Shown piece after piece: positions 5,618 through 63,222 of a DNA stretch of 64,000 bases. The notes beneath the pieces were generated by a model. That model was not told where the DNA came from and searched no databases. It saw only the letters and a list, made by a program, of their open reading frames with translations. The stretch lies in assembly GCA_009779135.1 (NCBI GenBank), contig WREW01000001.1, positions 94,233 through 158,232 on the forward strand, in the 5' to 3' direction. The DNA is from Alphaproteobacteria bacterium (GTDB lineage Bacteria; Pseudomonadota; Alphaproteobacteria; UBA9219). How positions within the stretch are numbered: the first letter of the stretch is position 1; each line of letters begins with the position of its first letter. The position numbers and the translations under genes were made by a program.

Positions 5618-6361
5618 ATGCTCAAGATAGAAAATCTCCACGCCGGTAGTGAAGGACATGAGATTTTAAAGGGACTCTCTCTCACCGTGCCTTTAGGGCA
5701 GGTGCATGCCTTGATGGGCCCTAACGGGGCGGGCAAAAGCACACTGTCTTATGTTTTGGCGGGCCATCCTTCCTATCAGGTGACGCAGGGGAAGATAGAG
5801 TGGCAGGGAAAGGATCTTCTGGCTCTTGCGCCCGAAGCGCGCGCCGCCGCCGGCGTTTTTCTGGCCTTTCAATATCCCGTGGAGATCGCGGGGGTTACGG
5901 TGATGAACTTTCTCAACACGGCGCTGAACGCCCAGCGCCGCGCGCGCGGCGAAAAACCGCTGGATGTTATTTCCATGGCAAAGTTTTTGAGGCAAAGAGC
6001 GCAAAGCATGCAGCTTGATGAGGCCATACTCAAACGCCCCCTTAATGTCGGCTTTTCGGGCGGCGAGAAAAAGCGCAACGAAGTTTTACAAATGGCCGTG
6101 CTGGAGCCGTCCTTATGCGTTCTGGACGAAACCGACAGCGGCCTTGATATTGACGCTTTGCGCATTGTCGCAGATGGCGTTAATGCAATGCGAAGCAAAG
6201 ATCGCGCCATGCTCATCATCACGCATTACCAAAGATTGCTGGATTATATCCGGCCCGACCATGTCCATGTTTTGCAAAAAGGGCGCATCATACGCACTGG
6301 CGATGCCTCCTTAGTGGCCGAGCTTGAAGAAAAAGGTTACGGAGACATGCATGCGCCCTGA
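5618..6361 (+). CDS. sufC: Fe-S cluster assembly ATPase SufC
   Basis: Walker A GPNGAGKST; ABC signature LNVGFSGGEKKR; 247 aa. Confidence 0.95.
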   Translation: MLKIENLHAGSEGHEILKGLSLTVPLGQVHALMGPNGAGKSTLSYVLAGHPSYQVTQGKIEWQGKDLLALAPEARAAAGVFLAFQYPVEIAGVTVMNFLNTALNAQRRARGEKPLDVISMAKFLRQRAQSMQLDEAILKRPLNVGFSGGEKKRNEVLQMAVLEPSLCVLDETDSGLDIDALRIVADGVNAMRSKDRAMLIITHYQRLLDYIRPDHVHVLQKGRIIRTGDASLVAELEEKGYGDMHAP

Positions 6362-15045: not shown

Positions 15046-15732
15046 TTAAAGACCAAGGCCATTGTCCTGTTTATTTCTTTTAGAAAAAATCCTTTCTATT
15101 TTCTTTTTCGTGTACTCTTTTATTTTAGCATAGTGAGATGAAAAGAAAGCGTGAGTGTTTTTAATCTTCAATTTTTCTAATGCCCTATCACGAAGTGCTT
15201 TCCTACTGTCTTTTGTCGTATAAAATGCTGCTGATGTCGCTATGGCAACTTGGAGTGTTTTTATTACAATATTATCCGCTCCAGCATTACCCCCTACAGT
15301 CTCAGGGAACCAATATTTTAAAGCCTCACCCGCAGCAGCTGGCAGGACAAAAATCCCACCGAGAAGTTCCAAGTACTTGAAACGCCCCTTATTCTCCAGA
15401 TATTCTCGCCGTTTCGTTACCTCTTCTTTGGCTTTCAAAAAAGCATCTTCTATGGATGTTATTTCTTGCTTGTATAAAACATATTGCGGACTTCCTTTTG
15501 GAAGTTGCTCATGAATAGCTCTTTGTATAGAAGGCGCGGGCTTTAATTCTTCAATGATCCTTTGTTCAAAATCAACGGGTTTCTTAAAAGAATACTTGCC
15601 TTCACGAAAGGGCAACATTTCTTCTTTTATCTTCAAAAGACTTTCTTGTGACTCTTCCATCGCCAAATCTATATCGAGCGATTTCGGATCAATTCCGTTT
15701 GTTTCGATTCCCTGTTGCATTTTGTACCCCAT
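15046..15732 (-). CDS. hypothetical protein (low-GC, likely horizontally acquired)
   Basis: 228 aa Lys/Glu-rich ORF in a conspicuously AT-rich stretch (14.2-15.9 kb); no known family recognised. Confidence 0.4.
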   Translation of the reverse strand: MGYKMQQGIETNGIDPKSLDIDLAMEESQESLLKIKEEMLPFREGKYSFKKPVDFEQRIIEELKPAPSIQRAIHEQLPKGSPQYVLYKQEITSIEDAFLKAKEEVTKRREYLENKGRFKYLELLGGIFVLPAAAGEALKYWFPETVGGNAGADNIVIKTLQVAIATSAAFYTTKDSRKALRDRALEKLKIKNTHAFFSSHYAKIKEYTKKKIERIFSKRNKQDNGLGL

Positions 15733-15933
15733 AAAATATTGAAACTATTTGTCTCAAGAGGCTTATTATGTCACAAAATTGGGGGTCATTTCAATTTTTC
15801 TATTACTTTCAATAGGTTAACAGAAGATTAACGCGATAAACAGCGGTTAACCTAGGGTCGTTTCGTTTCTGTTCAGAAACAATCGCTTGCCGTTCTTTTA
15901 TTCAACAGCCTTTAACTTATGACAGTTTTTTTG

Positions 15934-29351: not shown

Positions 29352-29425
29352 TGCGGGTGTAGCTCAATGGTAGAGCAGAAGCTTCCCAAGCTTACGACGA
29401 GGGTTCGATTCCCTTCACCCGCTCC
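29352..29425 (+). tRNA. tRNA-Gly (anticodon CCC)
   Basis: GCGGGTG acceptor stem pairing with CACCCGC; TAGCTCAATGGTAGAGC D-arm; anticodon loop CTTCCCAAG; GGTTCGATTCC T-arm; CCA encoded. Confidence 0.9.
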
Positions 29426-29452
29426 ATGCCCCGCACTTGAAAGGTTGGCGTC

Positions 29453-30256
29453 ATGTTACAAGGTTGGATAGATGCCGCGATCATGGGCGTTGTGGAAGGG
29501 CTGACCGAGTTTCTTCCCGTCTCATCCACAGGCCATCTTTTATTGATGAATGAGATCCTGCATTTTGAAGGGCCTCAAGGCAATGTCTTTGAAATTGTTA
29601 TCCAATTCGGCGCGATTTTGGCCGTGGTTGCCGTTTATTTCCAGCGCTTGTGGCGCGTTGCGATCAAGGCCCCGCGCGATCCGCAGGCCAGACGATTCCT
29701 TTATGCCGTGTTGCTGGCTTTTCTGCCGGCCATGGTGATCGGTTTTTTTGCGCATGGTTTTATCAAGGCGGTTTTGTTCAATCCGATAGTGGTGGCTGTT
29801 TCTCTGGTGCTGGGGGGAATCGTCATTCTCGTGATCGAGAAAAAAGCACCCGTCCCGACCGTCCATGAAATTGAAGATATGCCTATGAAAACAGCTCTTT
29901 ACATCGGGCTTGCCCAATGCATTGCCATGATCCCGGGCGTTTCGCGTTCAGGCGCAACAATTATGGGATCGCTTTTGCTCAAAGTGGATCGCAAAACGGC
30001 GGCCGAGTTTTCCTTTTTTCTGGCCATCCCCACCATGGCGGCGGCCACAGCCTATGATTTGTATAAAAACTTCGGACACTTAACTGCAGATGACGGCATC
30101 GTAATCGCCATAGGCTTTGTGGTATCTTTTTTGGTGGCCTATGGCGTGGTCAAAACCTTTGTAGGCTTTATCAGCCGACATGGCTTTGCGCCCTTTGCGT
30201 GGTACCGTATTGTTATAGGCCTTGCAGCGATTATGGCCTTATTGGTTTTGAAATAG
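29453..30256 (+). CDS. uppP: undecaprenyl-diphosphate phosphatase
   Basis: VEGLTEFLPVSSTGHLLL and IPGVSRSGATI motifs of BacA/UppP; 267 aa polytopic membrane protein. Confidence 0.9.
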   Translation: MLQGWIDAAIMGVVEGLTEFLPVSSTGHLLLMNEILHFEGPQGNVFEIVIQFGAILAVVAVYFQRLWRVAIKAPRDPQARRFLYAVLLAFLPAMVIGFFAHGFIKAVLFNPIVVAVSLVLGGIVILVIEKKAPVPTVHEIEDMPMKTALYIGLAQCIAMIPGVSRSGATIMGSLLLKVDRKTAAEFSFFLAIPTMAAATAYDLYKNFGHLTADDGIVIAIGFVVSFLVAYGVVKTFVGFISRHGFAPFAWYRIVIGLAAIMALLVLK

Positions 30257-30416
30257 GCACAAAAAAAGTGAAAAAATTAAGTAACTGTTAAGCCAAAACG
30301 AACAATAAAAGAGGATGAAAGAATTGCCAGTCAAAAAAGTGGCATAAGGCGCAGCTTGCGCATAAAATAGGAAAGAAACCTGTAGGATGAGATTTGCTCA
30401 AGAGGAACGCCTTTTC

Positions 30417-41785: not shown

Positions 41786-43134
41786 AGCCACCGAAAGATT
41801 CATCCAAAGACAAGGTTTCGGTGGATAAGGAACATGCGTTCCTCGCCGGTTGGGAGGATGAGCCCCTACGCATCCAACCCGAACATGTGGATGATCTTCT
41901 TTTGTGGTGCATCAAAGCGCGCTCCACGGACATCAGCTTTCAAACAGACAGGCCTGTGACGATCGAGGTGGACGGCGTCCTCTATCCCGTCACGCGGCGC
42001 TCTTTGGATTCGGCGGATCTGACGAATATTTTGATGAAAATCTACGGCCCCGATGCGCTGGCCAAACTGGCCTCGGGAACGGATCTTGATTTATCCTACG
42101 AAGTCAGGCCGGAGCGGCTGACGCGCTTTCGTTTCCGCACGAACATCACGGCGATTTTAAGTCGCGGGCGTGATTCGGTGCAGATCACCATGCGTGTTTT
42201 ACCTTCTTTGCCGCCCACCATGCTGGAGCTGGGCATTGAAGATGAAATTATCCGCAACTGGTCGCCGCGTCAGGGATTGGTTTTGGTGACAGGCCCAACA
42301 GGAAGCGGCAAAACAACGCTTTTGGCCTCGGGCTGCCGCATGTTGATCGAACGCAAGCAAGGCTGCGGCAAGCTTTTGACCTATGAAGCGCCGATTGAAT
42401 ATGTCTATGACACGATCACGGGCGAACATTCGCTTGTCGCGCAGTCGGAGATTCCGCGTCACATAGGATCCTTTGCCGCCGGTGTGCGCAACGCGCTGCG
42501 GCGCAAGCCCAACATTATTCTGGTGGGTGAAGCGCGCGACCGTCTTACGATGTCGGCCGCGATCGAAGCAGGACAAACAGGCCATCTTGTTTATTCAACC
42601 GTTCATACGGTCGGCGTGGCGGCCACGGTACGGCGTATTGTCAGCGTTTTTGAACCATCAGAGCGCACGGAGCGCGCCTATGCCCTGATGGAAACGCTGC
42701 ACATGATTGTAACGCAAGCCTTGGTGCCGCGCAAAGGCGGCGGACGCATAGGCTTGCGTGAATATCTGGTGATTGACGACAACATCCGCGAGCAGCTTTT
42801 AGACATGCCCGTTGACCGCTGGACAGCGGAAGTCCAGCGTTTTCTTGTACGCTATGGGCGCACCATGGAGCAAACGGCCAACAAGGCTTTTGAAGACGGA
42901 AAGATTGACCGCCAGACCTATCTTTTCCTGACCAAGGGCCTTTCGGGCGAAGAAAGCCTGCTTGAGGAAGAAGCAGAGGAAAAAAGCCCGAAAAAAGGCA
43001 AAAGCGCTGCCAAAACCAAAGAACCACCCCCCAGCGAACCCTTGACCTACAAGGACGTCCTGCGCGCTGTCGATGAACTTGATCTTCAGGAAACCCCAGA
43101 TCATCCCGACGACGACGACACCACAATGATCTAA
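41761..43134 (+). CDS. DotB/TraJ-like secretion ATPase (PilT/VirB11 family) with extended acidic/Lys-rich C-terminal tail
   Basis: Walker A GPTGSGKTT; Asp box; ILVGEARD; His box YSTVHT; 457 aa, ~80 aa longer than Legionella DotB; tail EEEAEEKSPKKGKSAAKTKEPP...DDDDTTMI. Confidence 0.85.
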   Translation: MDDDAPTVKPPKDSSKDKVSVDKEHAFLAGWEDEPLRIQPEHVDDLLLWCIKARSTDISFQTDRPVTIEVDGVLYPVTRRSLDSADLTNILMKIYGPDALAKLASGTDLDLSYEVRPERLTRFRFRTNITAILSRGRDSVQITMRVLPSLPPTMLELGIEDEIIRNWSPRQGLVLVTGPTGSGKTTLLASGCRMLIERKQGCGKLLTYEAPIEYVYDTITGEHSLVAQSEIPRHIGSFAAGVRNALRRKPNIILVGEARDRLTMSAAIEAGQTGHLVYSTVHTVGVAATVRRIVSVFEPSERTERAYALMETLHMIVTQALVPRKGGGRIGLREYLVIDDNIREQLLDMPVDRWTAEVQRFLVRYGRTMEQTANKAFEDGKIDRQTYLFLTKGLSGEESLLEEEAEEKSPKKGKSAAKTKEPPPSEPLTYKDVLRAVDELDLQETPDHPDDDDTTMI

Positions 43135-43145
43135 TCCCCCCTTTT

Positions 43146-43251
43146 TGTCATCCTCGGGCAACCGCGAAGCGGTTGAGCCGGGGATCTGACGCCAGAGCAG
43201 CCTTCACCGTCAGATCCCCGTGCTCTTGCTACGCAAGCCACGAGGATGACA
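43146..43251. repeat. ~100 bp palindromic MITE/REP-like element, copy 2 (TGTCATCCTCGGG ... CGAGGATGACA)
   Basis: Same termini and internal CCGGGGATCTGACG/CGTCAGATCCCCG and CAACCGC-GAA-GCGGTTG / CTTGC-TAC-GCAAG hairpin modules as the copy at 23770, in a different order; flanked by CCCTTTTT/AAAAAGGG; lies just downstream of the dotB-like stop. Confidence 0.6.
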
Positions 43252-43341
43252 AAAAAGGGCCAGATCCTTTTTTATTGATGAAAAAAAAAGATTTGAGGTG
43301 TAAAAAGAGTCAAGAGCCTCAAAAGAGAGAAAGACAAAACC

Positions 43342-52424: not shown

Positions 52425-53052
52425 ACGACCTCAAGTCGGCAAAAACAGCCGCGCCGGCTACACGCTTCTTGAAATGGGCCTCGTCATGATTGTGATGGTG
52501 ACGCTTTTTGCATCGCTTTGGGTGGTTGTGGCGCTGGTGACCCAGTCGATTTACCGCAAGCAGACCGTCAATCAAATCCTGCTTACGATCAACAATGTGC
52601 GCGATTTTTACACATCAAGCCTGCGCGTGCAGACGCCTGCGGGAAGCTCGGCAGCGGCGGATTTGACCAACTATCTTTTACGCCGTGGCGTTTTGCTGCC
52701 CGACCAGATCCGTGACCGCACGGCGGCCGTCTGGGTGGCGGATCTCCCTTGGGGGCCTGTGGCGGCGTCAGGCACCGTGATGAATGAAGGCGGCTTTGCC
52801 ATTGACGCGGCAGGGATTGATTCCTCGCGTTTCTTCAGATTGACGCTACGCGGCCTCAGCCGTTCAAATTGCATCACATTGTCGCCGGCCTTGACAGGGG
52901 TTGGCATGCCTGAAGGGCTGACAAGCGTGACCATCAATGACAATGCCCCTTCGCAACCCCCCGTGTCGCCGGATCAGGCAACCATTGAATGTGTGGAGCC
53001 TGAGGGTTTGGCGAACACGATTGAGCTCGTTTACAACCTAAGACGGGCGTAA
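52387..53052 (+). CDS. PilV-like minor pilin/adhesin (no shufflon)
   Basis: Leader ...NSRAG then YTLLEMGLVMIVMVTLFASLW prepilin signature; overlaps the pilS 3' end; no repeated 19-bp shufflon sites or rci recombinase nearby. Confidence 0.6.
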   Translation: MVRTMSLSLLSFKRPQVGKNSRAGYTLLEMGLVMIVMVTLFASLWVVVALVTQSIYRKQTVNQILLTINNVRDFYTSSLRVQTPAGSSAAADLTNYLLRRGVLLPDQIRDRTAAVWVADLPWGPVAASGTVMNEGGFAIDAAGIDSSRFFRLTLRGLSRSNCITLSPALTGVGMPEGLTSVTINDNAPSQPPVSPDQATIECVEPEGLANTIELVYNLRRA

Positions 53053-53186
53053 CGGAAACAAAATATCCGTTGTTTTTCAATGCCATGCAAAAAAATCCCA
53101 AAAAAGGCAAAATTGTGCATTATTTTCGTGATTTACTTTCACAACATGTGCTATAAGAGCGTCAGTTTTTTCAAAGGTCATAAGGG

Positions 53187-53693
53187 ATGGCAGTAGCTAT
53201 GGACATGAAAAACGAAGATGACCCCGCACAGAAAAACCAGAAATCCGTTTCGGCATCCATAAGCGGAATAGGACTTTCTTGGGCAGATCAAGATGATCTG
53301 TTGCGGCAGATGTGGCTGGATGGAAAACCGCAGGATGACATTGCGGCGGCGCTTGGACGCTCGGCAGCCGCGATTATGACGCGCGCGGCGCGTTTAGGCC
53401 TGCCGCGCCGCATGGCGCCGGGACGCAAGCGCGGCTATAAGCGCACCAACAGCAATGAGCGGCGCAAACTGGCCGCCGCCGGATCGCGCCGGATTCGCCT
53501 TGCTTTGCCGGAAGCGCCGGAGGAAGAAGACGTTTACGTGCCGCCTGAAGTCAAAACGCGCGTTTGCCTGATGTGCCTGAACAAGTTTCAATCGCAAGGA
53601 CGGCATAACCGCTTATGTTCTTCCTGCAAGGGCTCGGCGGATTATGCGACAGGCAACAGCACGCCGGACTTTACCTTTTCGGTTTCGAATTAA
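53187..53693 (+). CDS. GcrA-family cell-cycle-regulator-like protein
   Basis: N-terminal LSWADQDDLLRQMWLDGKPQDDIAAALGRSAAAIMTRAARLGLPRR matches the GcrA HTH pattern (W..E....L..LW..G.S...IA..LG...R.A...K..RLGL); basic linker; C-terminal CLMCLN...CSSCK Cys cluster. Confidence 0.6.
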   Translation: MAVAMDMKNEDDPAQKNQKSVSASISGIGLSWADQDDLLRQMWLDGKPQDDIAAALGRSAAAIMTRAARLGLPRRMAPGRKRGYKRTNSNERRKLAAAGSRRIRLALPEAPEEEDVYVPPEVKTRVCLMCLNKFQSQGRHNRLCSSCKGSADYATGNSTPDFTFSVSN

Positions 53694-53766
53694 CACAGCA
53701 TGCGGACAAATTGAGCTGGCGTCAGCCGTAGTTTTGCGTTTATACTAAAAACGCAAAAACGCCCTT

Positions 53767-54423
53767 TTGAAAGAGGTCATGATGTCGCTGAACGATGCTG
53801 TCTCCACAGTTTTATCGCGCAATACATTTTACCGCGATGGCTACAGGCTCCTGCTGCGTATCAGCCTGATTCAGGGCCTTGTAATTATTCTTTTGATCGC
53901 CTCGATTGTCACGATCGTTCTTTCGCTGGAAACGCGGTATATTTATTTCGCCACCACGGCGGATGGCCGCATCATCAATATTGTGCCTTTGAACGAACCC
54001 TACCGCACGCGCGGGGACGTGATTGCTTGGGCTGCGGGACGGGCGCAGGATGTGATGCGCTTTGGCTATAATGATTTCCGCCAGCGTTTGCAGGAATCAT
54101 CACAGCATTTCTCGGAAACAGGATGGGCCAGCTTTACAAAAGCCATGAAAGACGCCCGCATTCTGGAGGCTGTTGAAGGCCGCAAGCTGACGGTGGCTTT
54201 GGATGTTAACTCCGCCCCAGAGGTGCGCCGCGCCTTTGTGAATGAAGGCGTTTACACCTGGATTTTACAGTTTCCGGCCACCATTCGCTTTGACGGGCCG
54301 CAGGCGCCGCAGCCGATGCAGATTATCTTGACGCTTCAAATCGTGCGCGTCTCAACCCTGCAAAATCCGGCGGGAATCAGTATTGAGCAATGGATTGCCT
54401 CGCCTCGGGCAGGAGGAGGTTAA
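53767..54423 (+). CDS. DotI/IcmL/TraM-like T4BSS inner-membrane protein
   Basis: 218 aa; single N-terminal TM (LIQGLVIILLIASIVTIVLSL) then periplasmic domain; size and topology of IcmL; followed by a paralog, as with icmL/icmM in Legionella. Confidence 0.6.
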   Translation: MKEVMMSLNDAVSTVLSRNTFYRDGYRLLLRISLIQGLVIILLIASIVTIVLSLETRYIYFATTADGRIINIVPLNEPYRTRGDVIAWAAGRAQDVMRFGYNDFRQRLQESSQHFSETGWASFTKAMKDARILEAVEGRKLTVALDVNSAPEVRRAFVNEGVYTWILQFPATIRFDGPQAPQPMQIILTLQIVRVSTLQNPAGISIEQWIASPRAGGG

Positions 54424-54428
54424 GCGCC

Positions 54429-55163
54429 ATGCCGCAGAAGCCTCCGGAAACAGCCGCGAAGGCACCTTCTGGGCCTGAAAAAAAGAAAGCGCCCCCCAAG
54501 GTCAAAAAGGGGTGGAGTTTTTTCGATGATTCGCCCCCGCCTCAGGCGCTGAAAGGCGATCAGCTTTTCATTTATAAAAAACATAAAAATCTTTTAAGGC
54601 ACATCAGAAGGCAGACCTATATCATCATCATCCTGACCTCGGCCCTTTTTTTGACGCGGCCCTTTTTTCAGCCCATCATGGTCTATGTCGGCCTTGCGCC
54701 CCAGCTTCATGAAAGGCGCGAACTGCCGCTTGTCGCGTTGACCGAGCCGAATCTGACCGACCGGGCCGTCTTATCTTGGGCCACGGCAAGCATTACGGAG
54801 ATCCTGACCTTTGGTTTTGGTGATCTTGACGCGCGGCTTATCGGCCAATCCAGCCGGTTTACGGAAGATGGCTGGATCAGCTTCGTGAAAAGCTTTTTTG
54901 AGCGCGATTTGCAGGCAAGCTTCAAGGGCCGCCAGCTTGTTTTGACCACGGTGCCTGCCGATTCGCCGGTGATTACAGGGCGCGGCGCGGATCCGGACGG
55001 CGATTACGTCTGGAATGTTCAGATGCCCGTGGTGATGACCTATGCAACAAATAACAATGTTCAAAGCCGTGTGCGTAAAGTGGTTCAGCTTACGATTGCC
55101 CGGGTTCCCGCCAAGAAAAATATAGGGGGATTAGGCATAAAAGCTTGGAAAATGCTAGGCTAA
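54429..55163 (+). CDS. DotI-paralog (DotJ/IcmM-like) T4BSS protein
   Basis: GGAGGAGG RBS; Pro/Lys-rich N-terminus, one TM, periplasmic domain alignable to the preceding protein (LNEPYRTRGDVIAWAAGRAQDVMRFGYNDF versus LTEPNLTDRAVLSWATASITEILTFGFGDL). Confidence 0.55.
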   Translation: MPQKPPETAAKAPSGPEKKKAPPKVKKGWSFFDDSPPPQALKGDQLFIYKKHKNLLRHIRRQTYIIIILTSALFLTRPFFQPIMVYVGLAPQLHERRELPLVALTEPNLTDRAVLSWATASITEILTFGFGDLDARLIGQSSRFTEDGWISFVKSFFERDLQASFKGRQLVLTTVPADSPVITGRGADPDGDYVWNVQMPVVMTYATNNNVQSRVRKVVQLTIARVPAKKNIGGLGIKAWKMLG

Positions 55164-55359: not shown

Positions 55360-56496
55360 TTGTTGTATAAACAGGGACGAAAAATAGCCGCATCCGTTGT
55401 CCTTGGCGCGGCTTTGACAGGTCTAATGACATGCGCGGCTGTGACAGCTTGGGCGCAGACAGGGCCAACGGCGCAGGCTATACCGCAGGATCTTTTGGAA
55501 GCGTTGCGTGAAGGCGCGCCAGTTCCGCCCCCCCCCAGTCCGCCCGCCGAGCAAGCGCAGAACAAAGAAAATGAAAGAGGGATTGAGCTCGACAGCCTCC
55601 CCCCCCTGCCGGAAATAACGGCCGAGCAGATGCTTTTGGAAAGACAGGCCTTTGAAGCCGCAGAAGCCGCCCGCGAGGAGGAAGAACGGATCCGCAAGGA
55701 AGAAGAGCATAACCGCAGATCCTACAAGCGCGCCACAGAAGGCCTTTTCCCGCTGACGCCGGAGCAGATTCGCCATTTCATGGAAAGGCTTGAAGCAACG
55801 CAGGCCGTCTCTGAGATGCCCTCTGGCGGCCAGCCGCAGGGCGAAGTCAAAATTGTCCATCTTTCTTTGGACCCCGGCGGGCAGCCGCCCACCATCAATC
55901 TTGCCGCAGGCTATGTCACCACCATTGACCTTATCGATCAGACGGGGGAGCCTTGGCCGATCGCGGACGTTGGTGTAGGCGGAAACTTTGAAGTCACGCC
56001 GACCGAGGCCGGCTCGCATGTTGTAAGGGTGATTCCTTTAACGCGGGTGGGCACGGGCAATCTGTCGATTTTGCTGAAAGGCCTTTCAACGCCGATCATC
56101 TTCAGACTATCTGCGGGCGGGCCGACTTTTCACATGCGCTTTGACGCCAGCGTGCCGCAGCTCGGCCCCAACGCAAAAACGCCTTTGATTAAGCAGCGGC
56201 GCGGCGTTGTGGCAGGGGATGTGGCCATGACGATGATTTTGGAGAATGCACCGCCTGACGGGGCGCAGCGTTTGAGGGTGGGCGGCCTTGATGCCCGCAC
56301 CATGGCTTGGCAGCTTGGGGGTCGGGTTTATGTGCGCACGCCGCTGACTTTGCTGTCACCGGCTTGGAATGCCAGCGCATCTTCGGCGGATGGAATGACC
56401 GTTTATGAAATCGGCGATGCGCCGGTGCTTTTGGTATCTGATAACGGCGCCATGATAAGGGCGCGCCTTATGCGGGATGAAAATGATGTCAAATAA
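55360..56496 (+). CDS. DotH/IcmK/TraN-like T4BSS outer-membrane-associated core protein
   Basis: Signal peptide; Pro-rich and acidic linker; C-terminal beta-rich domain (KIVHLSLDPGGQPPTINLAAGYVTTIDLID...); 378 aa versus IcmK 360 aa; position after the DotI-like pair. Confidence 0.55.
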   Translation: MLYKQGRKIAASVVLGAALTGLMTCAAVTAWAQTGPTAQAIPQDLLEALREGAPVPPPPSPPAEQAQNKENERGIELDSLPPLPEITAEQMLLERQAFEAAEAAREEEERIRKEEEHNRRSYKRATEGLFPLTPEQIRHFMERLEATQAVSEMPSGGQPQGEVKIVHLSLDPGGQPPTINLAAGYVTTIDLIDQTGEPWPIADVGVGGNFEVTPTEAGSHVVRVIPLTRVGTGNLSILLKGLSTPIIFRLSAGGPTFHMRFDASVPQLGPNAKTPLIKQRRGVVAGDVAMTMILENAPPDGAQRLRVGGLDARTMAWQLGGRVYVRTPLTLLSPAWNASASSADGMTVYEIGDAPVLLVSDNGAMIRARLMRDENDVK

Positions 56497-57982
56497 CATG
56501 GACGACGAATTCACCGAGTCTTTCGAGCCGTTTGAGGACCCCTCGGAAGCGCCTCAAAAGCCAAGCGTCAAGCAAGGGCTAAAGGAAGCTTGGCGCACCA
56601 AGCCGATCCTGAAGCTTCTGGTCATCATGGCCGTTGTGATTATATCGCTGACCGTTGTTTTGGCCGCAACATCAGGCAAGCGTGAAGCGCCTGTTACACA
56701 GCTTGCGCGCGCGCCCGAACTCCGCGAAGTCCCCGGCGGCACAGCCACGCCCTTTTTCATTGAGCAAAATGACGCCGCCAACGAAGCACGCGCGCGTCAA
56801 GCCTTAACGCAAGGCGGCAGCGCCATGCCGACCCCTGTGGGCCGTCAGGTGGAAAACCCGAAAGACATCAAAGCCGATCCGTTAAGGGAGTTCCGTGAGG
56901 AAACAGAACGTCTGCGTACCCAAAGGACGGAGCAAGATCAGAAGATCCGCGAACTTGAACGTCAGCTGGCTACCCCACGCCCTGCAACGCAGGCGCAGGT
57001 ACAGCCGCAGCAGCGACAGCAGCAGCAACAACAGCCGCCGGATAACACCCTTGCGCAGGCCATGCAAAAGCAGATGCAGGCATTGCTGAAAGGGTGGGAG
57101 CCGACACATGCGCGGTTTGTCAAAGGCGCCAAAAGCGGTCTTGAAGATACGGCAACCGGCAAAACGCAGCAAATCTCAGGCACGCCGCCGCCCGGATGGT
57201 CTTCTCTGAAATATGGCGGGGCCAAGATTATAGTGGCAGCTGGCACCGTGAACTATATTCAGCTTTTGAATGAGGCCAATTCAGATGTGCCCGGGCCGAT
57301 TTTGGCGCAGATTCTTTCCGGGCCTTTTTCGGGCGGACGGGCGATCGGCACCTTTCAGGTGATGGAAAACCATCTGGTCATGACCTTTAGAAGCGTCGCT
57401 TGGAACGGAAGTGAATATTCCATCAATGCGCTTGCTTTGGATCCCGACACGACACTTGGCGGCATGGCCACGGAAGTTGACAATCGTTATTTTATGCGCG
57501 TCGTGCTTCCGGCAGCAGCGGCTTTTGTGTCGGAGTTCGGCACGATTCTTGGCGAAACAAGAACAACCACCACGGCCCAAGATGGCGTCATATTCTCAGA
57601 ACAGACCAAAAGAGGCTATAAGGAAGCTCTCTATTCAGGTCTGGGCTCGGTGGGCCAATCCGTGGCAGGATTCCTGCGCAGTGAGGCGAGCCGGACGAGA
57701 AAAATGGTGCGTGTCGCTGTGGGAACGCCAATGGGTCTGTTTTTCCTTCAATCCGTCATGGACCCGAGGGATCCGGATACATTACAGCAGCCCCCTCCGC
57801 CGAATGACCTGACCATCCCCACGCCACAGACCAGCAGTTCTTACCAGACGCAACCTTATCAGGACAATATGGCAACGCAGGACGGTCAGCTTTCACGCGA
57901 ACAGCTCAATCAAATAATGGCCAACATGCCCAGCTCGCGTCCTGTCAATGCAATGCCGATGAACGCGCCTTATCAGCAATAG
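56477..57982 (+). CDS. DotG/IcmE/TraO-like T4BSS core protein (VirB10-like C-terminus)
   Basis: N-terminal cytoplasmic stretch, single TM (ILKLLVIMAVVIISLTVVLAA), Gln/Pro-rich coiled-coil linker and C-terminal TrbI/VirB10-like beta domain; overlaps the dotH-like stop. Confidence 0.5.
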   Translation: MKMMSNNMDDEFTESFEPFEDPSEAPQKPSVKQGLKEAWRTKPILKLLVIMAVVIISLTVVLAATSGKREAPVTQLARAPELREVPGGTATPFFIEQNDAANEARARQALTQGGSAMPTPVGRQVENPKDIKADPLREFREETERLRTQRTEQDQKIRELERQLATPRPATQAQVQPQQRQQQQQQPPDNTLAQAMQKQMQALLKGWEPTHARFVKGAKSGLEDTATGKTQQISGTPPPGWSSLKYGGAKIIVAAGTVNYIQLLNEANSDVPGPILAQILSGPFSGGRAIGTFQVMENHLVMTFRSVAWNGSEYSINALALDPDTTLGGMATEVDNRYFMRVVLPAAAAFVSEFGTILGETRTTTTAQDGVIFSEQTKRGYKEALYSGLGSVGQSVAGFLRSEASRTRKMVRVAVGTPMGLFFLQSVMDPRDPDTLQQPPPPNDLTIPTPQTSSSYQTQPYQDNMATQDGQLSREQLNQIMANMPSSRPVNAMPMNAPYQQ

Positions 57983-58043: not shown

Positions 58044-59369
58044 ATGGCAAATAAAGACGATACGGATCTGGATCTTGAAAATCTGGAAACAGAAAGCGCC
58101 GAAACGCTTTCGCCGGATTCCGATGGCGCGGCCGAGGAATGGAAGGATGAACTTCCGCCCGAAGATGATTTTCACGATATGGAAGAACAGATCGAAGATG
58201 TTCTTGAAGAAATGCCGTCCGAAGAAGACCAACAATCGCATGAAAATCAAAACAAAGGCAAAAGCGGAAAGAAAACGCTTTTCCTGCTTCTGCTTGTGGG
58301 CGTGGTTGTCTTGGGCGGTCTTGCTTATTTCCAATTTTCATATCTGGATGGTGAGGAGGCAACCGGCCCTATACCGCTTGCAGGCATTGTAAATGCGCCG
58401 CCAAAACAGCAGGCCGCCAGCAATGAAAAAGGCATGTCCTCTTCAGAGATGCGGAACGCCTATCAACCGCCTGCTGGGCCTCAGAACGGCTATGTGGCTG
58501 TGCCTGCGTCATCTGCGGCGTCAGAACAAAACGGGCTGCAGGAACAGGAAAAGCCTATCATCAGCGGAATCCTTTCCAGTGACGCCGTACCCGTCAGGGA
58601 ACCTGCGGCTGTGCCTGCGCCGCTATGGCATGATCCTTTGCCGCTGCCGGCACCCGGGAAAGCCGTAGCGGAACCGCCACCGCCTATAAAAGAAGTACAG
58701 GAAATAGCCACCATTGCGCCGCTTCCTGTGGCGCCGCCTGTGAAAGAAGTGCAGGAAATAATCGCCATCGCGCCGCTTCCTGCGGCGCAACCTGCGCTGC
58801 CGCGCGCGTTGGATGAAAGGGAACAGGCGCGTTTTGATGCCTTGACCGATCAAGTTCAGGCGCTTCAAAAAACAGTGGATCAGGTTGTCAGCAAAAATGA
58901 AGCTTTGATGGCGCAGATCGACAACCTGCAAAGCCAGCTTTCAGACAGCGCGGCGAAACCCGATCAAGCTTTGCAAGACAAGGTGACGCAACTTGAAGCG
59001 CAACTTGCTGCGCTCAAGAATGATAATATGCGCGGCATCAATCTTGCGCCCGCATCTGAAGTCACAACTTTAGCCGCCGTGAAAAAACCGGTAGCAACAC
59101 CCAAAGCCGCCGCCAAACCGGCCCCGGCCAAAAAAGCCACCGCGCCGGCCAAGGCCGCCAAGCCAGCCCCCCTCCCAGCCGTTAAAAATGAGGGCTGGGT
59201 CTTGAGGGCGGCCACGCCGGAGGCCGCCTGGGTCTCGGCGGGCATGGCCTCGCAGGATTTCCGCCGCATCCGTGTGGGGGAGGAGCTCCCGGGCCTAGGA
59301 AAAGTTAACCAAATCCGCCAGATAGATGGTCGTTGGGAGGTTGTAACGGAGAAGGCTATATTGCAGTAG
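58044..59369 (+). CDS. DotF/IcmG/TraP-like T4BSS protein (acidic N-terminus, TM, Pro-rich repeats, coiled coil)
   Basis: TM KTLFLLLLVGVVVLGGLAYF; internal tandem repeat PPPIKEVQEIATIAPLPVAPPVKEVQEIIAIAPLPAA; coiled coil; assignment mainly positional (icmE-icmG order). Confidence 0.4.
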   Translation: MANKDDTDLDLENLETESAETLSPDSDGAAEEWKDELPPEDDFHDMEEQIEDVLEEMPSEEDQQSHENQNKGKSGKKTLFLLLLVGVVVLGGLAYFQFSYLDGEEATGPIPLAGIVNAPPKQQAASNEKGMSSSEMRNAYQPPAGPQNGYVAVPASSAASEQNGLQEQEKPIISGILSSDAVPVREPAAVPAPLWHDPLPLPAPGKAVAEPPPPIKEVQEIATIAPLPVAPPVKEVQEIIAIAPLPAAQPALPRALDEREQARFDALTDQVQALQKTVDQVVSKNEALMAQIDNLQSQLSDSAAKPDQALQDKVTQLEAQLAALKNDNMRGINLAPASEVTTLAAVKKPVATPKAAAKPAPAKKATAPAKAAKPAPLPAVKNEGWVLRAATPEAAWVSAGMASQDFRRIRVGEELPGLGKVNQIRQIDGRWEVVTEKAILQ

Positions 59370-59543
59370 CGAAGGAAAAAAAGAGCGAAAAGAATAAATT
59401 AGGCCCAAAAAAAGAGAGAAAATTTCTCTCTTTTTTTATAAAAATTAACGAGGTCTTTAATAGTTTCATGCACAATAGTGGGTAGGAATGTGTCATAATA
59501 AAGGCATAAGGTTTAACAAAGCCTTTTTTTGGGAGTTGGTACG

Positions 59544-63145: not shown

Positions 63146-63222
<77 letters not shown>

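Follow-up and report, generated by a model that had tools for sequence, protein, structure and literature searches.

The cell-cycle regulator GcrA of Caulobacter crescentus and other Alphaproteobacteria consists of a DNA-binding domain (DBD, residues 1–45), a linker and a sigma70-interaction domain (SID, residues 108–173) that carries a CCCH zinc finger with the spacing C-X14-C-X9-C-X2-H (PMC5887438, PMC9976885). R33, N34, I37, G38, H41 and R42 recognize bases and methyl groups, while the contacts of W3, W15, T32 and K39 are with the DNA backbone (PMC5887438, PMC9976885), and the SID is essential for GcrA function (PMC5887438). Two GcrA-related additions to the core copy have been reported, both described as GcrA family members: GcrB (CCNA_01269), a C. 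crescentus paralogue that partly complements a gcrA deletion, and the gp222 GcrA homologues of phage phiCbK (PMC3885167, PMC3556154). Here we analyze a gene that reuses the GcrA DBD in another setting. It lies at 53187–53693 on the plus strand of a 64,000-nt stretch of DNA (the window; contig WREW01000001.1 of assembly GCA_009779135.1, positions 94,233 to 158,232) from an alphaproteobacterium of the UBA9219 lineage, starts with ATG and encodes a protein of 168 residues. The gene is the leader of the dotI operon belonging to a type IVB secretion system (T4BSS), and its product is, on balance, probably a transcription factor dedicated to that operon, autoregulatory and acting at a site other than GANTC.

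Dedicated regulators of type IVB systems include PmrA and CpxR, which act on the dot/icm genes of Legionella and Coxiella, and TraB and TraC of the IncI1 plasmid R64. The role proposed here, transcriptional control of dot/icm- or tra-type operons, is the same, although these proteins belong to unrelated families (response regulators; NusG-like or other). None of the four is known to be encoded by the first gene of a dotI operon or to have a GcrA-type helix-turn-helix (HTH).

A GcrA-type DNA-binding domain joined to a different zinc module

Residues 30–75 of the protein (53274–53411, plus strand) form a three-helix GcrA-type DBD, delimited by profile and alignment, with residue roles taken from GcrA (PMC5887438). 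Profile and alignment homology thus bear out the GcrA-type HTH that an earlier note on this DNA had placed at the N-terminus. The Pfam GcrA profile (PF07750) matches the DBD but stays just under its cut-off (26.8 vs 26.9 bits), and the NCBIfam GcrA equivalog model (NF050816) is missed by a wide margin (25 bits against a cut-off of 280); the second half of either profile has no match in the protein. Among 119 family members, which also served for all residue column statistics given below, 78 reach the Pfam profile at E<=1e-3 (best 4e-8), always through the DBD. This domain is homologous to that of GcrA (38% identity; root-mean-square deviation 1.8 Å; PDB 5YIU, 5YIV, 5YIX and 7YE1). By contrast, hhalign against GcrA aligned nothing past residue 87, and a SID with the C-X14-C-X9-C-X2-H finger was not found in the protein.

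Within the DBD, the scaffold residues W32, W43, R66, R69 and L70-G71-L72 are retained. The equivalents of GcrA W3, W15 and R42 are kept in every member, as is an arginine in place of the backbone-contacting K39. The residues with which GcrA reads bases and N6-methyladenine have instead been substituted in 86–100% of members: R33 by V (102/119), N34 by A (104/119), I37 by M (119/119), G38 by T (119/119) and H41 by A (117/119). The recognition helix, which reads S-V/A-A-A-I-M-T-R-A-A-R here against T-R-N-A-V-I-G-K-V-H-R in GcrA, is invariant across the family. The fold and the grip on the backbone have thus been retained, and the specificity surface, both methyl pockets included, has given way to another that is just as invariant. 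Classing the protein with GcrA orthologues or methylation readers is therefore unwarranted, although some members have been named "GcrA family cell cycle regulator" by the NCBI pipeline.

The DBD is followed by a linker (residues 76–124; 53412–53558, plus strand), as defined by family alignment and disorder prediction. It opens with an invariant basic segment, A-P-G-R-K-(R)-G-Y-K-R, and continues as a variable remainder of 39–53 residues that is predicted to be disordered; Arg and Lys make up 34% of residues 76–92, in agreement with the basic linker noted earlier. The cysteine cluster described for the C-terminus is equally real. It belongs to a C4 zinc-ribbon-like module (residues 125–157; 53559–53657, plus strand) recognized by alignment, structure prediction and a PHROG match, with the signature R-x-C-L-M-C-L-x-x-F-x-S-x-G-x-x-N-R-x-C-x-x-C-K and the spacing C-X2-C-X13-C-X2-C, and its four cysteines (C127, C130, C144 and C147) are invariant in all 119 relatives. 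The module is modelled as a beta-hairpin/helix fold. The last residues (158–168; 53658–53690, plus strand) form a conserved tail, S/T-x-P-D-F-x-F, which is predicted with low model confidence and is possibly a short docking motif.

In general layout the protein resembles GcrA, as both are alphaproteobacterial and both combine a DBD, a flexible basic linker of about 50 residues and a small zinc-stabilized C-terminal domain. The C-terminal domains nevertheless differ, with zinc-binding loops in GcrA and beta-hairpins in the new family, and they share no profile or fold match; the new family also starts with a variable tail of about 28 residues that GcrA lacks, and it is tied to a T4BSS operon whereas GcrA is a global cell-cycle gene. 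GcrB and the phiCbK gp222 GcrA homologues are comparable in that the GcrA DBD has been reused beside the core copy, but the new family has a different C-terminal domain, and tblastn found no relative of it in 72,556 plasmids and 50,697 phage records. An identical 168-residue protein has also been called in public assemblies (uncultured alphaproteobacterium).

Relatives of the zinc module are found outside the family. Residues 122–152 match phrog_13335 (E 6.7e-8), and 95 representative proteins are related to the module at E<=1e-3. The closest in design are phrog_13335 and stand-alone C4 zinc-ribbon proteins of 52–100 residues (C-L-x-C-x3-F-x-S-x-G-x-H-N-R-I-C-x2-C-K), which match the module with 45–60% identity over about 40 residues and share the F-x-S-x-G-x-x-N-R-I-C signature but lack the HTH. 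These stand-alone proteins (C-L-x-C...F-x-S-E-G-x-H-N-R-I-C-x-K-C-K; for example, 6001–6195 in locus L068 and 2215–2373 in L067) constitute a widespread, uncharacterized family, related to the phage family phrog_13335, whose gene lies between infA and aroQ-accBC in some Alphaproteobacteria; their neighbourhoods are housekeeping ones and gave no functional hint. In Pfam, NCBIfam and PHROGs the protein matched no named structural component of Dot/Icm or Tra systems; the hits were confined to the GcrA HTH and to weak zinc-ribbon matches.

The gene leads the dotI operon in one clade of type IVB systems

The family comprises at least 313 clusters at 90% identity, with members of 130–200 residues that are conserved across both domains. 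They come without exception from metagenome-assembled genomes of Alphaproteobacteria, under the labels Micavibrio, "Bdellovibrionales", Rhodospirillaceae or unclassified. In a scan with one genome per species, the gene is present in 58 species-level genomes. Of the 57 loci that were informative, 55 have dotI and a dotI paralogue immediately after the gene, in the same orientation. In about half of the loci the series continues, as it does in the window, with dotH, dotG and three more conserved genes. Even the two exceptions lead back to the T4BSS: in L059 a peptidase gene is inserted between the GcrA-like gene and dotI, and in L060 the GcrA-like gene adjoins a gene for a DotL/TraG-like coupling protein.

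Since all of these loci had been picked through the GcrA-like gene itself, the association was also examined in reverse, with 80 metagenome loci picked through DotI alone. Where DotI is at least 48% identical to that of the window, the GcrA-like gene lies 6–132 nt upstream in 44 of 44 informative loci, whereas in the band of 39–45% identity it is present in 2 loci and absent from 22, and nothing comparable occupies the leader position in this distant clade. A single T4BSS clade is therefore defined by the added leader gene. In the leaderless clade, DotI carries a low-complexity (Q/P/A-rich) N-terminal extension of 60–90 residues (L129, 3734–4615; L139, 3797–4615), and the genes upstream are unrelated and divergent.

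In about half of the loci just 0–20 nt separate the GcrA-like gene from dotI; the gene is therefore the first cistron of the dotI operon. The functional tie to Dot/Icm-type genes that the earlier note had suggested is in this respect stronger than claimed. The proposed link to the thin pilus was not supported, as pil genes lie upstream of the gene in the window and in no other locus. In the window, the spacer to dotI measures 73 nt (53694–53766, plus strand) and contains a hairpin (53732–53758); this hairpin is not conserved, and with unremarkable fold z-scores it was rejected as an attenuator. In three other loci the spacer contains structured repetitive inserts (L052, 10454–10884; L055, 1226–1491; L056, 1402–1538; fold z-scores −4.6 to −11.9) that look like elements of the repetitive extragenic palindromic (REP) or miniature inverted-repeat transposable element (MITE) type.

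Conserved elements upstream of the gene

The gene is preceded by a non-coding stretch of 134 nt (53053–53186) with a GC content of 0.34 against about 0.53 for the window, which agrees with the AT-rich, promoter-bearing leader expected from the first inspection; in the other genomes, too, the sequence upstream of the gene is richer in AT than the locus around it. At its start, a terminator-like hairpin appears to follow the pilS-like gene (53051–53078, plus strand; AACGGA, a 9-nt loop, TCCGTT and GTTTTTC), although a simple scan restricted to loops of <=8 nt did not list it. The hairpin and its T-run suggest that the GcrA-like gene still begins a transcription unit.

Two conserved elements stand in these upstream regions. 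Box 1, with the pattern TTAA-N7-T[TG][GA][AG] (also TTAA-N7-TKGA), is present in 43 of 49 non-redundant loci, as TTAA-N7-TTGA in 24 and TTAA-N7-TGAG in 19 and always in forward orientation, against about 0.01–0.03/kb elsewhere. Box 2, AATTACTTTC, lies 14–20 nt downstream of box 1. The same 7-mer occurs in opposite orientations in box 1 of one subclade (TGAGTAATT) and in box 2 (AATTACT). The exact 7-mer AGTAATT/AATTACT is found 26 times in 13.2 kb of upstream sequence (1.97/kb) vs 16 times in 768 kb elsewhere (0.021/kb), where nearly all occurrences lie within open reading frames; such counts are inflated by shared ancestry, yet the proteins of these loci are just 41–70% identical and the rest of the spacers cannot be aligned. 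In some loci the 7-mer is paired, inverted at a distance of 27 nt (L029 and L030) or direct at 11–12 nt (L019 and L033). Both elements recurred in a set of 25 new loci derived through DotI (24 of 25, with the 7-mer at 2.07/kb vs 0.035/kb).

The window is an outlier in this respect: the core TGCATTATTTTCG-TGATTTACTTTCA-CAACATGTGCTATAAG is kept, and box 1 has been broken up by the gain of 17 nt and the loss of 8 nt. Box 2 is present as TTTACTTTCA (53132–53141, plus strand), overlapping the family-wide AATTACT with one mismatch here, and TACTTTCA is invariant in the eight closest loci. A candidate core promoter (53128–53157, plus strand) may be read as GTGATT-N18-TATAAG with a TG at 53149–53150, or in the Caulobacter style as TTTACTT-N11-GCTATAAG, and a GTGCTAT block is conserved in the closest relatives; a simple sigma70 consensus scan of the plus strand from 52800 to 54000 listed no promoter. 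Two arrangements fit, one with box 1 as the −35 element and box 2 at the −10 element or transcription start site, the other with box 2 as the −35 element and GCTAT as the −10 element.

Two further readings of these elements were rejected. Box 1 resembles a CtrA box but was rejected as a sign of CtrA control, as the full TTAA-N7-TTAA occurs in just 1 of 49 loci vs TTAA-N7-TTGA/TGAG in 43, and no CtrA control is claimed; it fits better as a −35 hexamer (TTGA) after an AT-rich tract. A regulon motif was likewise not supported, with box 2 before dotH in 3 of 33 loci and no second composite site in the T4BSS block of the window. Elsewhere in the window, a perfect CtrA-box-like TTAA-N7-TTAA is followed 7 nt later by GAAAGTAAT, an inverted box-2 sequence (15802–15831, minus strand), upstream of a flagellar-cluster gene (15046–15732, minus strand); this site holds the only other exact ATTACTTTCA in the window.

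GANTC sites, which in methylated form (YGAKTCG) are the elements of canonical GcrA at its target promoters and which the earlier note had suggested looking for in the promoters of the Dot genes, are absent both from the promoter stretch (53053–53186) and from the dotI spacer (53694–53766), nor are they enriched in the T4BSS intergenic regions (3.1/kb vs 2.5/kb in the whole window). The window holds 159 GANTC sites vs 210 expected. This depletion was discarded as a proxy for the methyltransferase CcrM, being uninformative: CCNGG, AANTT, CTNAG, GGNCC and CANTG show an equal or larger deficit. Over the whole window, observed/expected is 0.32 for CCNGG, 0.45 for AANTT and 0.76 for GANTC, and the depletion of CCNGG and AANTT may be due to avoidance of restriction-modification sites.

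Genomic setting

In the window, the GcrA-like gene is preceded by PilQ-, PilR- and PilS-like genes and followed on the plus strand by a dotI/icmL homologue (53767–54423; the public gene call starts at 53782), a second DotI-family gene (54390–55163), a dotH/icmK homologue (55360–56496), a dotG/TrbI-like gene (56477–57982) and a conserved gene for a 441-residue protein of unknown family (58044–59369). The latter, which contains an internal 54-nt tandem duplication (58680–58787, 85% identical), closes the gene series and is followed by a strong hairpin between A and T runs at about 59.40–59.44 kb (59404–59436; AAAAAAAGAGAGAAA-ATT-TCTCTCTTTTTTT), likely the end of the operon begun by the GcrA-like gene. 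The whole T4BSS/thin-pilus block spans 30.3–61.8 kb (30300–61800) and then gives way to TyrRS. It contains Ivy-like, SLT, DsbC/TrbB-like, DotD, DotC/TraI, DotB-like ATPase and IcmT genes, a TcpQ/secretin/PilO/PilQ/PilR/two-pilin set, the GcrA-like gene, two DotI genes, DotH, DotG and several conserved unknowns.

The idea that the gene is an extra, island-borne paralogue finds no support in this setting. The block is chromosomal and its flanks are housekeeping DNA, with RNase PH, HemN, Suf genes and PepN at 1–15 kb, followed by flagellar and folate genes, PolA and BacA, and GC across the block is unremarkable (0.50–0.57). Genes for tRNA stand at both edges (tRNA-Gly, 29353–29426, on the left; tRNA-Arg, 63146–63222, with TyrRS on the right), yet an integrated element was rejected, as neither an integrase nor a directly repeated tRNA end was found. 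A relaxase, a coupling protein and an att repeat were likewise not found within the window, and megablast of the region returned no plasmid match. In other genomes the unit of the gene and dotI adjoins gltX, aconitase or flagellar genes.

Several other features of the block were noted. Nested long inverted repeats between the DotB-like ATPase and IcmT-like genes (43140–43265; ttgtcatcctcg...cgaggatgacaa enclosing ggggatctgacg...cgtcagatcccc) are a REP-like or large terminator structure. The T4BSS block opens with an AT-rich spacer of 130 nt (GC 0.36) upstream of the Ivy-like and SLT genes, and this spacer contains another perfect TTAA-N7-TTAA (30277–30291), a possible CtrA-type site for the whole block. 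Similar A-rich 24-mers, AAAAAAnnCCnAAAAAAGGCAAAA, occur near the starts of several T4BSS units (42980–43003, 53089–53112, 30251–30274 and 59397–59420); they may be chance products of AT-rich spacers or UP-like elements.

Proposed function and alternatives

The operon concerned consists of dotI and the dotI paralogue (continuing with dotH, dotG and further genes) in one clade of chromosomal type IVB systems of Micavibrio-like Alphaproteobacteria. For the product of its first gene, we favour the role of a dedicated transcription factor. The re-tooled GcrA-type HTH would bind a non-methylated, non-GANTC site in the cell, for which the 7-mer AGTAATT/AATTACT is the best candidate; together with the TTAA-N7-TKGA box, the 7-mer marks the promoter region of the operon. 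The invariant basic segment A-P-G-R-K-R-G after the HTH may add minor-groove contacts in AT-rich DNA. The zinc module would be the effector end, contacting RNA polymerase or another partner, or self-associating. Because the gene is transcribed with the operon as its first gene, the protein would also control its own expression, as either an activator or a repressor. If the zinc module contacts RNA polymerase, the protein would be a mechanistic analogue of GcrA made with different parts. A bolder version, which we put forward tentatively and rate as rather unlikely, is that the family is a second, independent case of the GcrA design, in which a monomeric HTH reading the 7-bp AGTAATT in place of methylated GANTC, a flexible basic linker and a small zinc domain already docked on RNA polymerase or sigma when the promoter is bound would together amount to an accessory specificity subunit of the holoenzyme for the T4BSS. 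If true, the mechanism of a pre-recruited, tethered DBD would be modular and wider than the single case of GcrA.

The earlier note had taken the protein for a paralogue with the methylation sensitivity and sigma70 association of GcrA, which could couple the T4BSS or pilus to the cell cycle by reading CcrM methylation at GANTC and/or riding sigma70, or which could compete with GcrA. The true homology of the DBD, the parallel order of DBD, linker and zinc-bearing C-terminus (PMC5887438) and the known paralogues and phage copies of GcrA (PMC3885167, PMC3556154) speak for this. We nevertheless judge it very unlikely, given that the base and methyl readers are replaced, the SID with its CCCH finger is absent, the promoter and dotI spacer are free of GANTC, the depletion of GANTC in the window is not motif-specific and the pil genes are not conserved neighbours. 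Of the specificity positions in the recognition helix only R42 is shared with GcrA, which makes an anti-GcrA activity in particular unlikely. Less probable again is that the gene is simply the organism's sole core gcrA, placed by chance beside T4BSS genes. The naming of some members in the NCBI pipeline would favour this, and so would the lack of a canonical gcrA in the DNA compared: run by tblastn against the window and related loci of about 1 Mb in all, residues 1–87 of C. crescentus GcrA recovered only the new family itself. A protein-database search returned only Caulobacterales fragments, and a literature search found no paper joining Micavibrio with GcrA. Domain and residue tests contradict the reading as a sole core gcrA, however, with the equivalog model failed, the essential SID missing (PMC5887438) and the specificity residues changed, and the presence of the gene follows one T4BSS clade rather than a housekeeping context of the host. 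We give this alternative the lowest probability of all.

Two alternatives depart from transcription altogether. The protein could be a DNA-processing accessory of I-type conjugation, such as an oriT or relaxosome DNA-binding protein, to which an HTH with a zinc ribbon would be suited. The order of the block (DotD-DotC-DotB, thin pilus, DotI and so on) follows that of IncI/R64-type systems, and in L060 the gene stands beside that of a coupling protein. Nonetheless, the window yielded no relaxase, integrase or att site, no relative was found on the plasmids searched, in many genomes housekeeping DNA surrounds the unit, and the conserved elements lie directly upstream of the gene, in promoter position and fixed orientation; conjugation accessory is thus an unlikely role, if the least unlikely of these four alternatives. 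The protein could also be an adaptor or substrate of secretion, its C-terminal tail being recognized by the T4BSS so that export feeds back on transcription, by a logic like that of FlgM or ExsE, or so that the protein acts in the target cell. This would account for the conservation of the extreme C-terminus, S/T-x-P-D-F-x-F, although it is predicted to be flexible, and for the strict coupling of the gene to the machine genes. The proposal is purely inferential, however, and the tail may simply belong to the fold of the zinc module; no precedent is known in type IV secretion, and we consider it highly improbable. The preferred reading remains that of a dedicated regulator of the dotI operon.

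Significance

In the literature searched, neither this family nor a GcrA-type HTH combined with this zinc module nor a regulator heading a dotI operon is described. One consequence is the correction of an annotation trap, in which some members are named automatically as a GcrA family cell cycle regulator without the features of a methylation-reading sigma70 cofactor. The family bears on the evolution of the GcrA mechanism, with the DNA-binding fold of GcrA adapted to another specificity and coupled with a zinc module of another kind. An uncharacterized chromosomal T4BSS, conserved across Micavibrio-like and presumably predatory Alphaproteobacteria, also gains candidates for its dedicated regulator and for a cis-element. 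The machine encoded by the block may serve conjugation or, alternatively, interaction with prey or host, and one small gene and one promoter offer a handle on when and why these bacteria deploy it.
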